A DNA stretch of 32,000 nt. Source: Candidatus Heimdallarchaeota archaeon (lineage in GTDB: Archaea; Asgardarchaeota; Heimdallarchaeia; JABLTI01). This document shows positions 5,569 through 18,221 of the stretch, piece by piece. The translations under genes and the position numbers were made by a program. The DNA lies in the NCBI GenBank assembly GCA_030614005.1, contig JAUWKS010000026.1:1-32000 (forward strand), given 5' to 3'. The notes below the pieces were generated by a model. It searched no databases. It had not been told where the DNA came from and was given only the letters and a program-made list of their open reading frames with translations. The stretch's first letter is position 1. Each line of letters opens with the position of its first letter.

Positions 5569-8169
5569 CTATAAACTAATCAATTCAGCCATAATTTCAT
5601 TTTCTTCTAATTTTTTACATGACGAAAGAATTTTCTTGAGTATACTCAAGTTATTTTTACTCTCGAGATAGTTGGTATCTGGACTTTTAGTATGATCTGT
5701 AAATAGTTCAAGAAACCAATTATCATAATCTATTTCTTCAAGATTTGAATTCAGTGTTGATATTATTCCTGATTGTAATTCTCTTTCGAAATATATTGTA
5801 TCGACAAGAAAATCGCTTAAACTCTTAAGGAACAACATTGCATCACCAACTTCTGTAATTTCTTTCAATTGCTGATTCTGAGCTAAAAATAACTGATAGT
5901 TGGCTAATTTTGTTAATATGTTTTGTAACTTCACATCTTCTGGAATTATTATTGGGAGTTCTTTCAGATAGCTGCCATTAAATCGAAGATATCCTCCAGC
6001 AAGATGTGTGCCACTAAACAAGGAAGAAAAGATTACATTAAGAATATCTGAATTTAAAATCAAAGTAAGTATTTTCATCATATCTGGGTTGTGTGGATAG
6101 AACATGTAAATACCTGTAAGATTTGCGAAAATACCAGAATCATATGCTACTGTCAGTTCTGTTGCCACTTCTTTAATCAGTAATTTAGGTTTATTGAAAA
6201 GTTTTGTATGTTTCTCATCTCTAATTTTGAGAAATGGACTTTCAAATTTTTGCTTAGATAATCGAACTGGTTTTTGGAAATTAATAGAATAAGACGAGAC
6301 GTTTGAGGTCCCTATGATCCTGAAATCACTATTAGACATACGATTTTCAGTGATTTGTTTAACATTTTTATTCCAATCTGTAAAACCTAAAACACGATAT
6401 GCAAATTTACCATATGAATCTAATTTCAATGCTAAGGGATTATTCATGATTGATTGTATTAATTCAAGATTTGCTGAAATATTGAAAATCATTTTTGGTA
6501 ATTGATAAAAATCAATTTGTTTTCTATAGTATTTTCCAAAAGAATTCATTTCTAGTTCTTTTAGGTCCTCTATTTTTGAGGACACGTAAAACTGATTTTC
6601 TAGGTTCTCTTCTTTGTCGTTTTTTATTGCTTTTTCAAGTGTGAGGATAATGGGATAAATTGAAGCATCTTGAAAAACAGGTAAATAGGAAACATCAATT
6701 ATTGAAAGTATTTTAGATTGGGTTAGAATGATCTCTCTGATATTTTCTCCAAAATCTGTAGAGAGAAATTTATTGGTAATAATAAACGATAGCAAGCCAT
6801 CTTCTTTTAACAATTGTTGTGCACGTTCAATGAACAGAATTGATATATCATACAATTTATATGCGGAATAATATAGTCGGGAAAAGAATTCTTTTTCTGT
6901 TTTGTTTCTAATCTTCTTAATTTCAATATAGGGGGGATTACCTATAACTAAATCAAACCCTCCTTCTCCAAGAATGTTTGGAAATCTCTCGCACCAATGT
7001 ATTGGGTTCATTTCTAACAGTTCGTTAATTTTAAAATTATTTTTCTTTCTCTTTTTATTTAGATAATGCAAAAATCCTTCATCAATATTCTCTATTTCTT
7101 TCATATGATTGTTTACAAAACCAATTAGACTATTCCCTGAAACTAAATTGAAATCTAAATCTATAGATTGAGACGAATCGAAAGCTACAACATCTTGATT
7201 TGAAATAAACCATAACCACAAATTTATCCTTGAAATTGAAAGCGCCTCTTCCATCAAATCAGCACCGAATAAATTACTTTCAATAATGATCCTCTTAATT
7301 TCTGCATCAGATATTTTTAATGACAATTTTCCTGTTATGCTTTTTTGTAATTCAAATAAAATTCTAGCAGTTGCTAGTAAAAATTCTCCCGAACCTGAGG
7401 TAATATCTAAAATTCTGAGTTTTGAAAGGATATCATATAAAGTCTTGAGTGAATTTCTATTATCAATACTTTTGATATCTGCTAATTTTTCTAGCGGAAC
7501 AGCCATTTTTTGAGAGAGTATTGAAAGGATAGTTTCTTTGGTCATAAAACTAGTAATCTCTGGTGGTGTGTAGTAAACTCCTTTTTTTCTTCTATCTGTT
7601 AATTGACGGGAGATTGTATTCTTCTCTTTATCTTCTTCTACTGATGATAGAAAGTCGTAATAGTTCATATCTCTTTCAAAAATAGTACTAAAAGATTCAG
7701 TAACATTACTACCGTATTGTTTAATTTTTTCAAAAGAAAATTTAACTAGTTTACTAATTTCTAAATCGTCAAAATAATTTCTCTCTTTATAATAGTCTTT
7801 TGAAAACCAGGCTCTGATTGTTATTGGTAGTTGAATTATAAGTTCTTTATCCCTAATTATATATGAGGTTTTTTTTTGGTTTTTCCCAAAAGAAGTAAAT
7901 AACGCATGCAAATTTTCCTTTTTATCTCTGCTATTCAGAATGCTGTTGAAAATTACTTCTGAAGAACATTTCTCTTCTTCATTACTTTTTATCAAATCAT
8001 TTTTAGTTAGGGCAGGAATCATGAATAAAGCAAAAAGCAAGTGCTGTAGGTATTGTATTACTCTCTTACCATAAAGGTCAGATATTATATCTTTAATTAT
8101 CTCATCTCGAATCTCTTGATATTCATTATAAATTGAGTCAATTTCAGCTTTAGTGAGATTCTTTAACAT
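5569..8169 (-). CDS. N6-adenine DNA methyltransferase, Eco57I/TaqI-like gamma class, with C-terminal target-recognition domain and no evident nuclease domain
   Basis: RRKKGVYYTPPEIT (motif X), ILDITSGSGEFL (motif I), FGADL, FDLVIGNPPY (motif IV) and the TaqI_C-like KLLIKEVA segment. Confidence 0.9.
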   Translation of the reverse strand: MLKNLTKAEIDSIYNEYQEIRDEIIKDIISDLYGKRVIQYLQHLLFALFMIPALTKNDLIKSNEEEKCSSEVIFNSILNSRDKKENLHALFTSFGKNQKKTSYIIRDKELIIQLPITIRAWFSKDYYKERNYFDDLEISKLVKFSFEKIKQYGSNVTESFSTIFERDMNYYDFLSSVEEDKEKNTISRQLTDRRKKGVYYTPPEITSFMTKETILSILSQKMAVPLEKLADIKSIDNRNSLKTLYDILSKLRILDITSGSGEFLLATARILFELQKSITGKLSLKISDAEIKRIIIESNLFGADLMEEALSISRINLWLWFISNQDVVAFDSSQSIDLDFNLVSGNSLIGFVNNHMKEIENIDEGFLHYLNKKRKKNNFKINELLEMNPIHWCERFPNILGEGGFDLVIGNPPYIEIKKIRNKTEKEFFSRLYYSAYKLYDISILFIERAQQLLKEDGLLSFIITNKFLSTDFGENIREIILTQSKILSIIDVSYLPVFQDASIYPIILTLEKAIKNDKEENLENQFYVSSKIEDLKELEMNSFGKYYRKQIDFYQLPKMIFNISANLELIQSIMNNPLALKLDSYGKFAYRVLGFTDWNKNVKQITENRMSNSDFRIIGTSNVSSYSINFQKPVRLSKQKFESPFLKIRDEKHTKLFNKPKLLIKEVATELTVAYDSGIFANLTGIYMFYPHNPDMMKILTLILNSDILNVIFSSLFSGTHLAGGYLRFNGSYLKELPIIIPEDVKLQNILTKLANYQLFLAQNQQLKEITEVGDAMLFLKSLSDFLVDTIYFERELQSGIISTLNSNLEEIDYDNWFLELFTDHTKSPDTNYLESKNNLSILKKILSSCKKLEENEIMAELISL

Positions 8170-12499: not shown

Positions 12500-12740
12500 A
12501 TAATCTCACTGTTTCAATTGTGCTATTTACTGGTTGAAGAATCCCTTCAAATACTGACTAAATTAACTTTTCTGTAATCAAAATCAGTAGTACAAGCCTT
12601 TGATTAAAAAATCTTTATTTTAATTAACAAATAAATCACCTAAAACCCAAATTGTTTTTTATAGGAATACGAATGCTAATACTGGGAATATTTTTTTATA
12701 TGAAAAACGGAACTTTAAATAATCGTGAGTAGTGTTTTCT

Positions 12741-13895
12741 ATGTCGGCTCATAAATCTAAAAAAATGGAAAATATAAAAACAGAAATACTTGTTGAAAAA
12801 GCAGATCCAAGTAAGGTACCACCTGTTATAATCGTCCATGGTGCCGGAAGCACAAAAATTGGTTTTGGTGGTGAACAATTTCCACGTTTTGTATTTCCAA
12901 GACAAAGCACCATTTTAAGCGACCGATTAAAACGCTTTCCACTTCAAGGTAGCTATACAACAAATGAAGAATGGTTGAAGGCTTATTGGCAAGCAATGAT
13001 AATGAAATTAAGCACTGACCTCTCAGAGAGAAGAGTATTACTTAGCCTACCAACTGCTAATTTAACCGAATGCCCTTTTAGGGAATTGGCTCAAGAGTTC
13101 TTTTATGAAGACCTTCAAGCAAATCAGGTGGCTTTTGTATCAGATCCGTTTTTATCTTTAGTAGGTTATATCCCAAAAACAAAAAGTTTGACAGCACTAA
13201 TAGTTGATATAGGTTTTTCACAAATCAGAATTGTACCTATTTATCAGTCAACAATTCTAGAAGACAAAATAGCCCAAATATCATTTGGAGGATTTGACCT
13301 CACAAAAACTTTGGGGTTGTGGTTAAAAAATAAGGGATATGAAGGATCTCTGGATGCACTTTTCTTACGAGATATAAAAGAGAATTTTTGTTTAGTAAGA
13401 CCATTTAAGCAGACGATGCCCGACACGGAAACTGAATCGTTTACGTATTCCATAGACAAATACAACTTTCAACTTACATCAGAACTCTGGAAATTAGCTG
13501 AATTATTTTTCTTTAAGGATTATTTTTCAAAGAAAGTAGAGATGTGTCCAAGAAGTACTTTTGAGGGAGAAAGATTCCCACTAGATGAAATAACATTACC
13601 AAAAGCAATAGGTTTTGTTGTAAATAGTGTTGATGCAGAAATCTCTTCAAAACTAGTACAGAATATTTGTTTTACAGGTGGGGGTACAAAATTTAATGGA
13701 ATTTATGAACGAATTCTTGAAGAATTCAAATTCCATTTTCCTGAATATAAATCTGAAGTTAAAATACATACACAATCTAATAATGATCTCGTTCCTTACA
13801 TCGGCGCGTCGAAATTATCAACTCTACCTTCCTTCCAAAATCATTGGCGAAACGCAGAAGAGTATGATGAAGGGTTATTTGATTTATTTCTCTAA
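12741..13895 (+). CDS. Divergent actin-family (actin-related) protein
   Basis: GAGSTKIGFGGEQFPRFVFP (P1), LIVDIGFSQIRIVPIY (P2), NICFTGGGTKFNGIYERI (adenosine), and C-terminal YIGASKLSTLPSFQNHWRNAEEYDE matching actin [25 protein letters not shown]. ATG at 12741; the track starts at GTG 12732. Confidence 0.9.
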   Translation: MSAHKSKKMENIKTEILVEKADPSKVPPVIIVHGAGSTKIGFGGEQFPRFVFPRQSTILSDRLKRFPLQGSYTTNEEWLKAYWQAMIMKLSTDLSERRVLLSLPTANLTECPFRELAQEFFYEDLQANQVAFVSDPFLSLVGYIPKTKSLTALIVDIGFSQIRIVPIYQSTILEDKIAQISFGGFDLTKTLGLWLKNKGYEGSLDALFLRDIKENFCLVRPFKQTMPDTETESFTYSIDKYNFQLTSELWKLAELFFFKDYFSKKVEMCPRSTFEGERFPLDEITLPKAIGFVVNSVDAEISSKLVQNICFTGGGTKFNGIYERILEEFKFHFPEYKSEVKIHTQSNNDLVPYIGASKLSTLPSFQNHWRNAEEYDEGLFDLFL

Positions 13896-14638
13896 CTTTT
13901 CTTGGGTTGTTTTTTTCCATTACTATCAAATATAACAGGAATAATTTTACCATCTTCTATAGCAAAAATCTTATCTGCTTTTTTTGCTACGTCTAAATTG
14001 TGAGTCACAACCATAATTGTTATACTAAATTCTCTTTGTAAATCTCTCATAAGTTTGATAATTTTTTCACCTGTTTCTGAATCCAAATTACCGGTTGGTT
14101 GATCTGCCAAAATGAGTTTCGGTTCATTAGCTAACGCTCGAGCAATTCCTACTCTTTGCTTCTCACCACTGGAAAGCTGTGTTGGAATGTGCTTTTTTCT
14201 TTTACTTAAACCAACTTTTTCTATTAGCTCATTTACTCGACGAACTCTTGATAATTTTTTTAAATTTTCTGCATAGATCATTGGAAGCTCTATGTTCTGT
14301 TCAACTGTTAAAACTGAATGAAGATTTATATCTTGGAAAATAATGCCAACTTTTCTTCGAAATAACACTCTTTCTTCCTCGGTGAGAGATGAAATATCTT
14401 CACCATCATACCATATTTTTCCGCTCGTTGGTTTATCTAATCCTCCAATCAAATTCAATAATGTAGTTTTACCACTCCCTGAAGAACCAATTATTGCGAT
14501 AAATTCATTTTCCATTACAATGAGATTTATTCCTTGAAGAGCTTCAACAGATGTCGATCTATCATCATAAGTTTTAGTTAGCTCTTCAATTAGAATGAGT
14601 ATTTTTTGAGGAATACACAATGAAGGTGTATTTGTCAT
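13892..14638 (-). CDS. ABC ATP-binding protein, LolD/MacB/FtsE family (Walker B Glu replaced by Gln)
   Basis: GSSGSGKTT, FQ Q-loop, LSSGEKQRVGIARAL, ILADQPTGNLD, VTHN. ATG at 14638 directly follows the upstream stop. Confidence 0.92.
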   Translation of the reverse strand: MTNTPSLCIPQKILILIEELTKTYDDRSTSVEALQGINLIVMENEFIAIIGSSGSGKTTLLNLIGGLDKPTSGKIWYDGEDISSLTEEERVLFRRKVGIIFQDINLHSVLTVEQNIELPMIYAENLKKLSRVRRVNELIEKVGLSKRKKHIPTQLSSGEKQRVGIARALANEPKLILADQPTGNLDSETGEKIIKLMRDLQREFSITIMVVTHNLDVAKKADKIFAIEDGKIIPVIFDSNGKKQPKKS

Positions 14639-14639
14639 T

Positions 14640-15356
14640 TTAGGCACCCTCTTCTTTTTGAAAGTTTGTCAGTACAGAAGTAATTTTGCCATCTTCTAGG
14701 CCAAATGCTTGATCAGTAGCTTCTATGAACTGCCTCTTGTGTGAAACAATTATCATCGTTGTACCAAAATCTTCAGAAAGGGATTTCAAGTGATTGACTA
14801 CCTCAACACTCGTAGATGTATCCAATTCTCCTGTTATTTGATCACCTAAGAGAATTTTTGGCTTATTTGCAATAGCGATTGCTAAACCAACTCTTTGTGC
14901 TTCTCCACCGGAAATTTGGTTTGGCTTGTGATTTTTTCGATGTGACAGTCCAAATCTATCTAATAGCTCGTACGCAATTTTCTTTTGCTCTTCCCTAGGT
15001 TTATTAGCAATTTGTAATGGAAGCATAACATTTTGCAAAACAGTATTTCCACTGATCAGATTATCTTTAGGTAGTTGCCAGAGATATCCTACCTGCTCTC
15101 TTCTAAATTTGATTAATTCCTTGTAAGTGAGATGAGTAATTTCTTTGTCATTAATTATAACGTAACCTGAACTAGGATTAAGTAAGCCGCCAAGTATTGA
15201 GAGCAAAGTAGTTTTTCCTGCACCACTCGGTCCAAATATCCCAACAAAATCACCTTCTTCTATTGTAAAACTGACACCATTGAGTGCGGAAATACCAAGT
15301 CTACTCACAGGGTTCACATAGACTTTCACTAAATCTACTACTTCAATTAGGGACAT
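14640..15356 (-). CDS. ABC ATP-binding protein, LolD/MacB/FtsE family (Walker B Glu replaced by Gln)
   Basis: GPSGAGKTT, ISGGEAQRVGLAIAI, LLGDQITGELD, VSHK; GAGGTGA RBS. Confidence 0.92.
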   Translation of the reverse strand: MSLIEVVDLVKVYVNPVSRLGISALNGVSFTIEEGDFVGIFGPSGAGKTTLLSILGGLLNPSSGYVIINDKEITHLTYKELIKFRREQVGYLWQLPKDNLISGNTVLQNVMLPLQIANKPREEQKKIAYELLDRFGLSHRKNHKPNQISGGEAQRVGLAIAIANKPKILLGDQITGELDTSTSVEVVNHLKSLSEDFGTTMIIVSHKRQFIEATDQAFGLEDGKITSVLTNFQKEEGA

Positions 15357-15365
15357 TCTTTCACC

Positions 15366-18221
15366 TCAAGTTGCTCTCGCTAAGTCATTTATTTCCTTTT
15401 TAATTGTGTAATATGCTGGAATCATAGCGCTAATAGCAGCAATGACTAATGCTAATATTAGAATTATCAATAAAGACAACCAAGGAACATCTATAGTCAA
15501 AGGAGGCACTTGATTTCTACTATTGATAATATTTGAAATAATAGCTGAAACTGCGATGCCTAATGGCAAACCAATGCCAATACCAATTCCCATAATCAAT
15601 AATGTCTCATACATAAAGGAATAGTATATCTCTTTGTTTCTCGCTCCTAATGCCCGAGTAATAGCTAATTCTTTCGACCTGTCAAATAGTATGAGAAGAG
15701 AATAAATGCTAATACCTGCGATGGTACAAATCATTGTTGTTAAGAAGGATGAATTAAGCATAGCATAAGTTGATAATCTTGCAGGCATTTCAAGATTACC
15801 AGCAGCACCATCTTCTGACACAACAATTTGGACAGATGGATATTTATCTTGAATCATTGCTGCAATTGCTACACCGGTATTCGGTTTTTTTTGTTTAATA
15901 TACAGAGATTTAACGTAATACGAACATTGATAGTCATCTAGCAATCGATCAACTGTTAAAATGCTCCCAACGATATATTTCTGCGATGAAACCGATTCTG
16001 ATAAGTCAGAACCAATTACAGTATTGGGGAAATATTTGAATTTTCCAATGATATTATAATGATTTCCTAGATGAGAAACAAAACTATTACCCACTCTTAA
16101 ACCTGCATCTCTCAAGTTATCCTTTTGAACAAGAATATTACCCGGAGTTTTTAATTTCTTGATCAACGTCTTTAATGGTAAATTGAAACCATACCTTAAT
16201 GGTTGCATAAAGCCAGCATCCTGAAAAGTATCCGGATTAATGCCAAGCATAGTGGTAGTTGTTTTACCCCATCCTAAATTTATTTCTGATTCTTCTACTG
16301 ATATTATGTTTGAAACACTTGCAACACTATCCAAACTTTTTACATAATCTGCTATCTCATCTAGATTCAAATAATCGGTTACAACAATGTCTGCACCTAA
16401 AACATAATCCCATCTTTGATGAGTGTTAAAATCGATAGTTGAAGGAACAACAGCACTAACTATACCAAAAGATAATGTAACAATGATTAGAATCACTGCT
16501 CGAGAAGTTTGCTTTTTTTGATGAGTGAGATTTTTTAATGAAAGCGCAAAAGTTCCACCGCCTTTTGCCCAGAGTTTATCACCAAGTTTTCTTATTGCAG
16601 GAGTGAAACCACGACTGATAAGCAAGCTTACTCCAACAACTATTGCAACAGGTGCGGTAACGCCAAAAATTAGTATCATTGTGGTTTGAATATCACCAGA
16701 AGTAAACTCAATTGCTATGAAATACATTGCTACGCTGAACACTGCATATATTCCGATTATTCTATCAAATCGAAATTCTTCCCAAATGGGTTTTTTCTTC
16801 CTTTCTTCTTCTCCAGCAACATTTTTCACTTTCAACCGGCTCAAACCAATAATTCTTGGAAGATTTATTATCAATGACAAAGTTATGCCTGAAGTTAGAA
16901 TGATTATTATTAAAGCCCAAATAGCCGTATAACCATAATCTGCAACAGGCAAATCACTCTTAAACTCCATAAAACCACTTGTTTTTCCGATCAATTGCAA
17001 TAATGGTATTCCTAAGAGTGAACCTAAAATTAACGAAATAGTAGTTGAAACACCCATCTCTAATAATAGTGCATAAAGAACTTGTCTATTTGTTGCCCCT
17101 CTGGCTTTCAATAAATTAATGTGGTGAACATTTTGAGAGCGAACGATATTGAATGAGAAATTTATCATAAAGAATGCAATGGCAATTGGTGGAAAAGTTA
17201 GTACAAGAATAATTGTTTGAATGTAATTAAAGTCATCATAAAAGAGTTTCAAATTATAATTTATTCTACTGTAAACGAAAGTGAAATATGTATTTGTAGA
17301 TTGTAGAACATTCGATTGAAGCGTATTTTCAAAATTAGCGTTTTTCAAATAGTCCTTGTTTTCTGAAAAAACTCCATAATGTGAATAGTCTACATCAATA
17401 TTAACATAATATTTCTGCACCAAGCTTGCTGTTTCAACACCCATATCCTCTAATAAACCACCCACACCATCCAAGGTAGATATCATAATAATACTAGGCA
17501 CTTTAACCAATGAATAACCGAATCTTCTCAAAAATTGATTGTAAACTGATCGGTAGTTAAACTCTAACGCGTAATAATCAAAAGGAATTCCACCAGCCAA
17601 AGTGATTTCATGATTGCCCGGTGCTAAATTACTTGAAATATTGAATTTGGAATCTTCAGGAACATAGATGTTATTTGTCCTATGTAATCGAGTATAAATA
17701 ATCAGTTGATGTGTACTATTCACTTCTGAAAAACCTATCGGTGAAATATATCTTAAGAATTGAATATCTTTTTCAGAAAGTCCGATGAGCGTTACATCAC
17801 TTTCTACTATAGTGCCTGTTGATGTTCTTCTGTGATGAAGTGTAATATCTGTAACCGAACAAACTCTTGAGCTACCAATAAAATCATTGTAACCATTATC
17901 TGAAGCAATTTTTAGAAGATCTTTTTCTATAGCTTGATCAAATTCATTTGTAGGGTACCCATTATCATAAATTACTCCTTCAAAATCAGGACCAATATCA
18001 ATTGCAATCGCTTCATCACTAATTACACCACCAAATAATCCTTTACTATATTGACCAGATAGAAAAGTTCCTAATAATGCTCCTTTGCTGCCTATAAGAA
18101 AAAGGATCATTTGAAACGAAACAGAGAGTGCAATAGTTAAACCAATAGTCGTTAGAAGTAATGACTTTTTGTTAGATCTAAGAGAAGATATGGCAATTTT
18201 CCAATTATTCCTAAGAGACAT
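15366..18221 (-). CDS. FtsX/MacB-like (type VII) ABC permease with two fused permease modules
   Basis: N-terminal NWKIAISSLRSNKK plus TM, two large extracytoplasmic domains, and two FtsX coupling motifs (LKARGATNRQV; RALGARNKEI), each followed by TM bundles. GGGTGAG RBS. Confidence 0.9.
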   Translation of the reverse strand: MSLRNNWKIAISSLRSNKKSLLLTTIGLTIALSVSFQMILFLIGSKGALLGTFLSGQYSKGLFGGVISDEAIAIDIGPDFEGVIYDNGYPTNEFDQAIEKDLLKIASDNGYNDFIGSSRVCSVTDITLHHRRTSTGTIVESDVTLIGLSEKDIQFLRYISPIGFSEVNSTHQLIIYTRLHRTNNIYVPEDSKFNISSNLAPGNHEITLAGGIPFDYYALEFNYRSVYNQFLRRFGYSLVKVPSIIMISTLDGVGGLLEDMGVETASLVQKYYVNIDVDYSHYGVFSENKDYLKNANFENTLQSNVLQSTNTYFTFVYSRINYNLKLFYDDFNYIQTIILVLTFPPIAIAFFMINFSFNIVRSQNVHHINLLKARGATNRQVLYALLLEMGVSTTISLILGSLLGIPLLQLIGKTSGFMEFKSDLPVADYGYTAIWALIIIILTSGITLSLIINLPRIIGLSRLKVKNVAGEEERKKKPIWEEFRFDRIIGIYAVFSVAMYFIAIEFTSGDIQTTMILIFGVTAPVAIVVGVSLLISRGFTPAIRKLGDKLWAKGGGTFALSLKNLTHQKKQTSRAVILIIVTLSFGIVSAVVPSTIDFNTHQRWDYVLGADIVVTDYLNLDEIADYVKSLDSVASVSNIISVEESEINLGWGKTTTTMLGINPDTFQDAGFMQPLRYGFNLPLKTLIKKLKTPGNILVQKDNLRDAGLRVGNSFVSHLGNHYNIIGKFKYFPNTVIGSDLSESVSSQKYIVGSILTVDRLLDDYQCSYYVKSLYIKQKKPNTGVAIAAMIQDKYPSVQIVVSEDGAAGNLEMPARLSTYAMLNSSFLTTMICTIAGISIYSLLILFDRSKELAITRALGARNKEIYYSFMYETLLIMGIGIGIGLPLGIAVSAIISNIINSRNQVPPLTIDVPWLSLLIILILALVIAAISAMIPAYYTIKKEINDLARAT

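Follow-up and report, generated by a model that had tools for sequence, protein, structure and literature searches.

The first 32,000 nucleotides of contig JAUWKS010000026.1 from a Candidatus Heimdallarchaeota archaeon (assembly GCA_030614005.1), a stretch referred to here as the window, carry an actin-family open reading frame (ORF) on the forward strand at positions 12741-13895. The ORF list and its translation give an intact frame of 384 amino acids, with an ATG start and a TAA stop. We found that the encoded actin-related protein, hereafter ARP, has a eukaryote-like actin fold that has lost the DNase I-binding loop (D-loop), and that its nucleotide site carries substitutions which are themselves conserved throughout its family. 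Our preferred reading, held tentatively at a probability of about 45%, is that ARP is a lineage-specific actin-related protein of one Heimdallarchaeial genus, of lokiactin-type origin and retained together with a canonical lokiactin, and that it would act as a nucleotide-binding accessory protein and not as a subunit of an F-actin-type filament.

The Pfam Actin family (PF00022) matched ARP with 121.7 bits against a cut-off of 27 (E 3.7e-35). The strongest stretch was residues 208-377, in the C-terminal half, and the W-containing motifs of actin are also kept; the C-terminal actin signature reported in an earlier note, which was made from the DNA letters and their translations, is thus well preserved. 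In a sequence search of the PDB, solved Arp1 and actin chains were matched at an E value of about 1e-24 and with 24-27% identity, the top single-sequence match being Arp1 with 88.7 bits. Modeling with AlphaFold2, which the same note had proposed, returned an actin fold from the alignment of 31 orthologues, with a mean predicted local distance difference test score (pLDDT) of 82.4 and a predicted template modeling score (pTM) of 0.84. Low confidence (pLDDT <50) was confined to residues 1-18 and 56-63. Foldseek ranked actins first (template modeling score 0.77, E about 1e-25). A VIA structural search against representatives gave a Z score of 34.1 for actin, with a root mean square deviation of 2.4 over 328 residues, compared to 33 for Arp3 and Arp4, 30 for Arp7/9 and Arp11, 27 for crenactin and 21-22 for MreB. 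The model, Foldseek and VIA all showed the two RNase-H-like lobes with subdomains 1, 3 and 4 intact. Together, the Pfam, PDB, Foldseek and VIA results show that ARP has a eukaryote-like actin fold.

Within this fold, subdomain 2 is reduced to a short remnant. We measured 12 residues between the VFP motif and FPLQGS, compared to 36 residues between VFP and YPIEHG in actin, in good agreement with the earlier estimate of about 11 versus about 35. HMMER and MAFFT concurred on this deletion: HMMER paired residues 25-54 of ARP with residues 8-37 of Arp1 and residues 64-377 with Arp1 residues 71-365, and MAFFT placed a deletion of 24-25 residues at actin residues 33 to 57-58. Subdomain 2 thereby loses the D-loop, the hairpin and the larger part of its short helix. 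In an actin filament, the D-loop of each subunit docks in the cleft at the barbed end of its longitudinal neighbor. A short subdomain 2 of equal length was observed in all 31 orthologues, and their alignment indicates that loss of the D-loop is ancestral and conserved within the ARP family.

Two insertions accompany this loss. Four residues, YIPK (residues 143-146), are inserted after actin Ala144 in the loop of the barbed-end hydrophobic cleft, and helix 135-147 of the AlphaFold2 model is extended by one turn at this site. A further 17 residues (264-280), specific to the family, are inserted after actin Gly268 in the hydrophobic-plug loop, which in actin provides cross-strand contacts. This plug insertion is conserved across the family, carries an invariant Pro270-Arg271-Ser272 and an invariant Gly276, and is spanned by a confidently modeled segment (pLDDT 86-96 over residues 251-290). 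The tip of subdomain 4 carries small deletions as well. Overall, 120 of 377 residues (32%) are identical in a residue map against actin. The surfaces were compared using lists of contact residues known from F-actin structures, and the pointed-end face was the most diverged, with 24 of 37 subdomain 2 positions deleted and, on the subdomain 4 face, 1 of 16 positions identical and 3 deleted.

Changes of a different kind were found in the nucleotide site. In actin, Asp11, Gln137 and Asp154 hold the water shell of the cation, and Gln137 and His161 position the attacking water. Of these four residues, only Asp154 is retained in ARP. HMMER aligned the GTC codon at 12834-12836, which encodes Val32, to Asp11 of Arp1 and actin, and the same phosphate-1 loop carries His33 at the position of Asn12 and Ala35 at that of Ser14, with Gly13 and Lys18 kept. 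Across the family, position 32 is V, I or A and His33 is invariant. The phosphate-2 loop keeps Asp154 and Gly156 and shows four replacements: Asp157 by Phe159 (Phe or Leu within the family), Gly158 by the invariant Ser160, Val159 by Gln161, and His161 by Arg163, which is present in 97% of the orthologues. Both loops are unchanged in length compared to actin. At the positions of Gln137 and Ala138, the family has an invariant Asp135 and an invariant Pro136. Moreover, eight residues are the same as in actin and do not vary among the family members (Arg210, the ribose-binding Lys213 and Glu214, Gly182, Gly301, Gly302, Phe306 and Gly308). By position, 8 of 14 residues of the nucleoside pocket are identical to actin, compared to 6 of 19 in the catalytic set.

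The earlier note had already recognized the replacement of Asp11 by Val and of Ser14 by Ala, as well as the divergence of the phosphate-2 loop (DIGFSQIR versus DSGDGVTH), and all of these observations hold. Its suggestion that the protein is possibly catalytically inactive proved too simple, since the replacing residues are fixed or nearly so and the nucleoside pocket is kept together with K18, D154 and G156. The invariance of the replaced catalytic positions argues that the site has been rewired and has not decayed.

These features were compared with those of 135 cluster representatives, the nearest ones in the actin family. Of these, 124 have D and 4 have E at position 11, and a hydrophobic residue was found there in a single full-length sequence. 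A subdomain 2 segment of 13 residues or fewer occurred in 12 of the 135; the named ones are actin-like proteins from scattered eukaryotes (tunicate, mosquito, foraminifer and fish). All of these short-segment sequences keep D11 except P0053, which has E, and some of them may be gene-model artefacts. None of the 135 representatives unites loss of subdomain 2 with a hydrophobic residue at position 11 and an acid at position 137. The single full-length sequence with a hydrophobic residue at position 11 (P0137; 377 amino acids) has Val there and E-P at the positions of Gln137-Ala138, with a full subdomain 2. It may represent an independent occurrence of the same charge relocation, although as the single case outside the family it is anecdotal.

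The distribution of the family is sharply limited. A word-indexed search recovered 31 near-full-length relatives of 369-392 amino acids with 48-88% identity; those with names are annotated as "hypothetical protein" or "actin-related protein" of Candidatus Heimdallarchaeota or Asgard-group metagenome-assembled genomes. The ORF is intact in all 31 clusters, which come from independent metagenomes, and the orthologue alignment contains 68 invariant columns, the substituted catalytic positions included. Since the unusual features are present in 31 of 31 orthologues, they are not sequencing or assembly artefacts. When 1.84 billion cluster representatives were scanned exhaustively, all family members fell into one 50% cluster, and scores dropped from 872 bits for the family to 105 bits for the first full-length match outside it. 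The only intermediate match, a 152-residue fragment (P0033; 206 bits, 65% identical), looks like a piece of a family member. We rejected the existence of a closer sister family on the basis of this drop; the top non-family matches are a mixture of divergent eukaryotic actin-like proteins and a lokiactin-like protein of Hodarchaeota. Whole-genome searches found the family in 10 of the 11 genomes of the GTDB genus of the window (g1), the eleventh being 86% complete. Outside g1, no family member turned up in the remaining 71 genomes of the class or among 300 genomes sampled from the phylum, about 370 distinct Asgard genomes being covered in total. The best non-family matches in Asgard genomes were lokiactins with at most 125 bits, versus more than 620 bits for family members, and hidden Markov model searches of 300 Asgard genomes detected no paralogue closer than lokiactin. 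ARP belongs to a sharply delimited new family within the known Asgard actin-related proteins.

This family is under purifying selection. The ratio of nonsynonymous to synonymous substitution rates (dN/dS), estimated with NG86, was 0.092 when the gene in the window was paired with that of the closest congener (dS 0.66); the remaining pairs without saturation gave 0.036-0.20. At the same time, ARP diverges much faster than lokiactin: within the genus, lokiactins are 96-100% identical, compared to 51-96% for the ARP family, so that amino acid differences amount to 0-4% and 4-49%, respectively. A canonical lokiactin (about 448 Pfam bits) was found in 8 of the 10 congeneric genomes, and the two genomes without it are 64% and 69% complete. 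Indeed, the finding that congeners carry both genes bears out the distinction, made in the earlier note, between this protein and the lokiactin-type filament actins.

The phylogenetic position of ARP was investigated under a site-heterogeneous model in unrooted trees without named Arp2-10 references. The family formed a clade with 99-100% support, its stem being longer than 2 substitutions per site. It fell outside a 99% supported clade of eukaryotic actins and Arp1-like sequences, within which the Arp1-like representatives, so labeled from motif resemblance and a PDB match, formed a clade of their own with 98-99% support. When a divergent orphan actin from contig C82 of the same genome (described below) was left out, the stem joined the lokiactin-like part of the tree, beside the lokiactin-like protein of Hodarchaeota (88 in the Shimodaira-Hasegawa-like approximate likelihood ratio test [SH-aLRT]). 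The grouping of the family with the C82 actin (SH-aLRT 96) was regarded as two long branches meeting and was not relied on. Several sequences considered as Asgard ARPs (P0035, P0038, P0073 and others) were set aside as lokiactin-type, being 46-54% identical to lokiactin. Because the branch is long, the tree unrooted and the named Arp2-10 references absent, placement among the lokiactin-type sequences is provisional. Such a position fits an origin in which a lokiactin-type gene was duplicated in Heimdallarchaeia and then changed rapidly.

Comparison with known systems showed a mixture of shared and distinct properties. Crenactin is likewise an archaeal protein with an actin fold, and it has an enlarged hydrophobic-plug loop, but it keeps the D-loop and forms filaments. 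ARP is nearer to actin (Z 34, 24-26% identity) than to crenactin (Z 27.4, 14% identity), which did not appear among the top PDB sequence matches in either single-sequence or profile searches. Eukaryotic Arps belong to the same superfamily and are, like ARP, divergent paralogues present beside a conventional actin, with structural Z scores of 30-33, tied with actin. In several nuclear Arps, the polymerization surfaces have diverged and the nucleotide pocket persists. Unlike them, ARP is archaeal and restricted to one genus, and it showed no particular affinity to any named Arp. The Arp3 chain 1k8k_A (Z 33.2) was tied with actin; the Arp11 chain 5adx_J reached a Z of 30.1 versus 34.1 for actin and was absent from the top 60 PDB sequence matches, and the tree held no named Arp10 sequences.

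Lokiactin (asgardactin 01), the canonical Asgard actin, was the best match outside the family in Asgard genomes and shares with ARP the fold, K18, D154, G156, R210, K213, E214 and the adenine loop. In a search of solved structures with the family profile, the best match was "HC1 actin" (9wc4; 138.5 bits), a solved example of this canonical type, with eukaryotic actins scoring about 122 bits. The name HC1 presumably refers to the Hodarchaeales strain described in bioRxiv 10.1101/2025.02.26.640444, a preprint that also mentions a Heimdallarchaeaceae enrichment, HC4. ARP is only about 24-30% identical to lokiactins. These are 57-62% identical to eukaryotic actin, compared to 24-27% for ARP, and they keep a full subdomain 2 as well as D11, Q137 and H161, all of which ARP lacks. 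In contrast to the single-genus ARP, lokiactins occur throughout the Asgard archaea (PMC9834061). Five asgardactin clades have been recognized, of which asgardactins 04-05 group with ARP10 (Da Cunha et al., MBE 2022, PMC8850707), and three uncharacterized ARPs have been described in "Ca. L. ossiferum" (PMC9834061). Asgardactins 02-05 and the paralogues of "Ca. L. ossiferum" resemble ARP in being patchily distributed, uncharacterized actin paralogues.

If our preferred reading is right, the absence of the D-loop and the remodeled tip of subdomain 4 would make the longitudinal contact of F-actin impossible from the pointed face, and ARP would thus not be a canonical filament former. An adenine nucleotide and a cation would probably still be bound, because the loss of an acid at position 11 is matched by a new one at position 137, next to the retained D154. 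Hydrolysis would probably be altered or much slower, as in the constitutively nucleotide-bound nuclear Arps. Most likely, ARP would serve as an accessory subunit that binds lokiactin, as a monomer or at a filament end, or another partner. It might cap, scaffold, nucleate, enter a heterodimer or polymerize in another way. The greater degradation of the pointed face compared to the barbed face points weakly in the direction of a capper.

Several observations weigh against this reading. A pointed-end capper was tested for by conservation of the barbed-end face, and this face was not enriched in conserved positions: identity was 5 of 18 (28%) in the cleft and 3 of 16 (19%) in the subdomain 3 acceptor surface, versus 32% overall. 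The 4-residue insertion in the cleft loop argues against simple docking of the F-actin type. With the barbed face not preferentially conserved and the cleft altered, binding of lokiactin in the manner of F-actin is not supported by the sequence. The conserved plug insertion could serve self-assembly with another geometry. Occupancy of the nucleotide site is a prediction from its residues. Furthermore, no canonical lokiactin was found in the 90%-complete assembly that contains the window (G000), where tblastn matched only contigs C74 and C82; this is probably an assembly gap, but coexistence with ARP is thus seen only in congeners. Finally, comparison of the congener neighborhoods revealed no conserved neighboring gene that would hint at a partner.

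The main rival, which we consider unlikely, is that ARP forms a non-canonical homopolymer of its own, in which the plug insertion and the altered cleft replace the D-loop contact and the rewired site drives or times assembly. Divergent actin-fold proteins such as crenactin, ParM and BeeR do form filaments. Such a polymer would account for the plug insertion being the best conserved family-specific element, confidently modeled and paralleled by the enlarged loop of crenactin, and it is in line with the conserved nucleotide site and with strong purifying selection on the family. It is harder to reconcile with the absence of the D-loop, with the loss of an aspartate that is nearly universal among the 135 representatives and with the fast evolution of the family, unlike that of lokiactin, the only filament-forming actin compared. 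Moreover, the structural neighbors of ARP are actins and Arps and not bacterial filament formers.

Less likely still is a role outside the cytoskeleton, in which ARP would be a nucleotide switch or a chaperone-like or enzyme-like protein of the ASKHA type that uses His33, Asp135 and Arg163 for another chemistry or ligand. A new invariant polar set does line the cleft, the surfaces by which F-actin subunits bind their neighbors are not conserved, and the sole conserved neighbor of the gene, the gatE-gatD pair, has no cytoskeletal link. However, the nearest relatives in sequence and structure are all actins and Arps, the actin-specific features of the C-terminal half and the nucleoside pocket are kept, and we detected neither a substrate-type pocket nor an extra domain in the Pfam search. 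That ARP is a paralogue in decay or a product of faulty assembly or annotation, as the very long branch and the loss of canonical catalytic residues might suggest, is excluded by the conservation of the intact ORF and of the substituted positions, by dN/dS values of 0.04-0.2 and by conserved synteny across the genus.

A more specific version of the accessory-protein reading, which we consider unlikely, is that ATP or ADP would be a stable cofactor or a slow switch. The acid for the cation would have moved from position 11 to 137, His33 and Arg163 would replace Asn12 and His161, and the protein would use its remaining faces and the plug insertion either to cap or nucleate lokiactin filaments at one end or to build a filament of new geometry.

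Asgard archaea are a model for the origin of the eukaryotic actin system, and we know of no Asgard actin-related paralogue that has been characterized. On our preferred reading, a Heimdallarchaeial lineage would have independently paralleled the eukaryotic Arps by duplicating an actin, removing its polymerization loop, rebuilding its nucleotide site and adding new surface elements, all while its conventional actin was left nearly unchanged. With 384 residues, a compact and soluble-looking form and many natural variants, ARP could help to separate what the actin fold needs for nucleotide binding from what it needs for polymerization, and the family allows ARP-type filament regulation to be examined in archaea. 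Should ARP prove to be a regulator of filament ends, it would be the first characterized ARP-type end regulator outside eukaryotes, evolved independently of the eukaryotic Arps. The restriction to a single genus limits its bearing on eukaryogenesis.

Features of the ARP gene and its product (window positions; residues are numbered in ARP unless stated otherwise)
Feature	Position	Strand	Basis
TATA-like A/T-rich box TTTTTATAT, about 37-46 nt upstream of the ATG	12695..12705	+	Sequence reading
Coding sequence, actin-related protein	12741..13895	+	ORF list; Pfam Actin; orthologue alignment starts at the same ATG
Charged N-terminal extension, residues 1-24, poorly conserved, predicted disordered	12741..12812	+	AlphaFold2 pLDDT <50 over residues 1-18; variable alignment columns
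Phosphate-1 loop VIIVHGAGSTK (Asp11 to Val32, Asn12 to His33, Ser14 to Ala35; Gly13 and Lys18 kept)	12825..12857	+	HMMER, MAFFT, orthologues
Subdomain 2 remnant, 12 residues; D-loop and flanking hairpin deleted	12900..12935	+	HMMER, MAFFT, orthologues, AlphaFold2
Motif SDPFLSL, with Asp135 at the Gln137 position and Pro136 at the Ala138 position, both invariant	13140..13160	+	Orthologues, MAFFT
Insertion YIPK, residues 143-146, barbed-end hydrophobic cleft loop	13167..13178	+	HMMER and MAFFT gaps
Phosphate-2 loop VDIGFSQIR (actin LDSGDGVxH); Asp154 and Gly156 kept	13203..13229	+	Orthologues, MAFFT
RDIKE, with Arg210 and ribose-binding Lys213/Glu214 as in actin, invariant in the family	13368..13382	+	Orthologues, residue map
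Family-specific 17-residue insertion, residues 264-280, hydrophobic-plug loop	13530..13580	+	HMMER, MAFFT, orthologues, AlphaFold2
Adenine-pocket loop GGGTKFNG (actin GGSTMFPG)	13677..13700	+	Orthologues, residue map

The ARP gene is monocistronic and is separated from the divergent gatE-gatD genes by an A/T-rich intergenic spacer of 241 nucleotides (12500-12740). The TATA-like box in this spacer is a possible archaeal promoter, which would leave a short leader. Divergent transcription relative to gatE-gatD is kept in six congeners, and the downstream flank varies: several congeners have a CoA-binding ORF followed by a TPR gene, and the window and one congener (G010) have an ABC-transporter cassette. 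Gene neighborhood was dropped as a clue to function, gatE-gatD being the only constant neighbor and revealing no partner. No gene for an actin-binding protein was linked to the ARP gene in the neighborhoods examined.

Elsewhere in the same genome, contig C31 encodes a two-domain gelsolin (6643-7188, reverse strand; a 217-residue frame with Pfam Gelsolin matches of 49.9 and 36 bits), which indicates that an actin regulatory system is present. Pfam searches of the genome for profilin and for ARPC4 (PF05856) gave no match, but the controls matched nowhere either. The divergent actin-family ORF on contig C82 (36826-38073, forward strand; L002/L043) encodes 416-435 residues, with a phosphate-1 loop IVLDAGSSIIK and a degenerate phosphate-2 loop VEINTNKII. 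Its identity to lokiactins is about 30%, and it is an orphan, since the 81 other genomes of the class yielded no orthologue. Three paralogous actin-fold ATPases with a GIDLGTSxIK phosphate-1 motif gave weak Pfam Actin matches on contigs C34 (33608-33886, reverse strand), C9 (12331-12531, forward strand) and C54 (13036-13323, reverse strand). Their open frames are 368, 369 and 438 residues long, they are ParM/Alp-like by appearance, and similar weak matches were found in most congeners.

In the window, the ABC cassette (13892-18221, reverse strand) lies between the ARP gene and the TPR gene and comprises two ATPase genes and a gene for a 951-residue FtsX-type permease; the CoA-binding ORF takes its place in congeners other than the one that shares the cassette. 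Both ATPases have D-Q rather than D-E after Walker B (ILADQPTG and LLGDQITG). Positions 5569-8169 (reverse strand) encode an 866-residue restriction-modification methyltransferase fusion of the Eco57I/MmeI type (type IIG-like), whose identity to its counterparts in congeners ranges from 27 to 82%.

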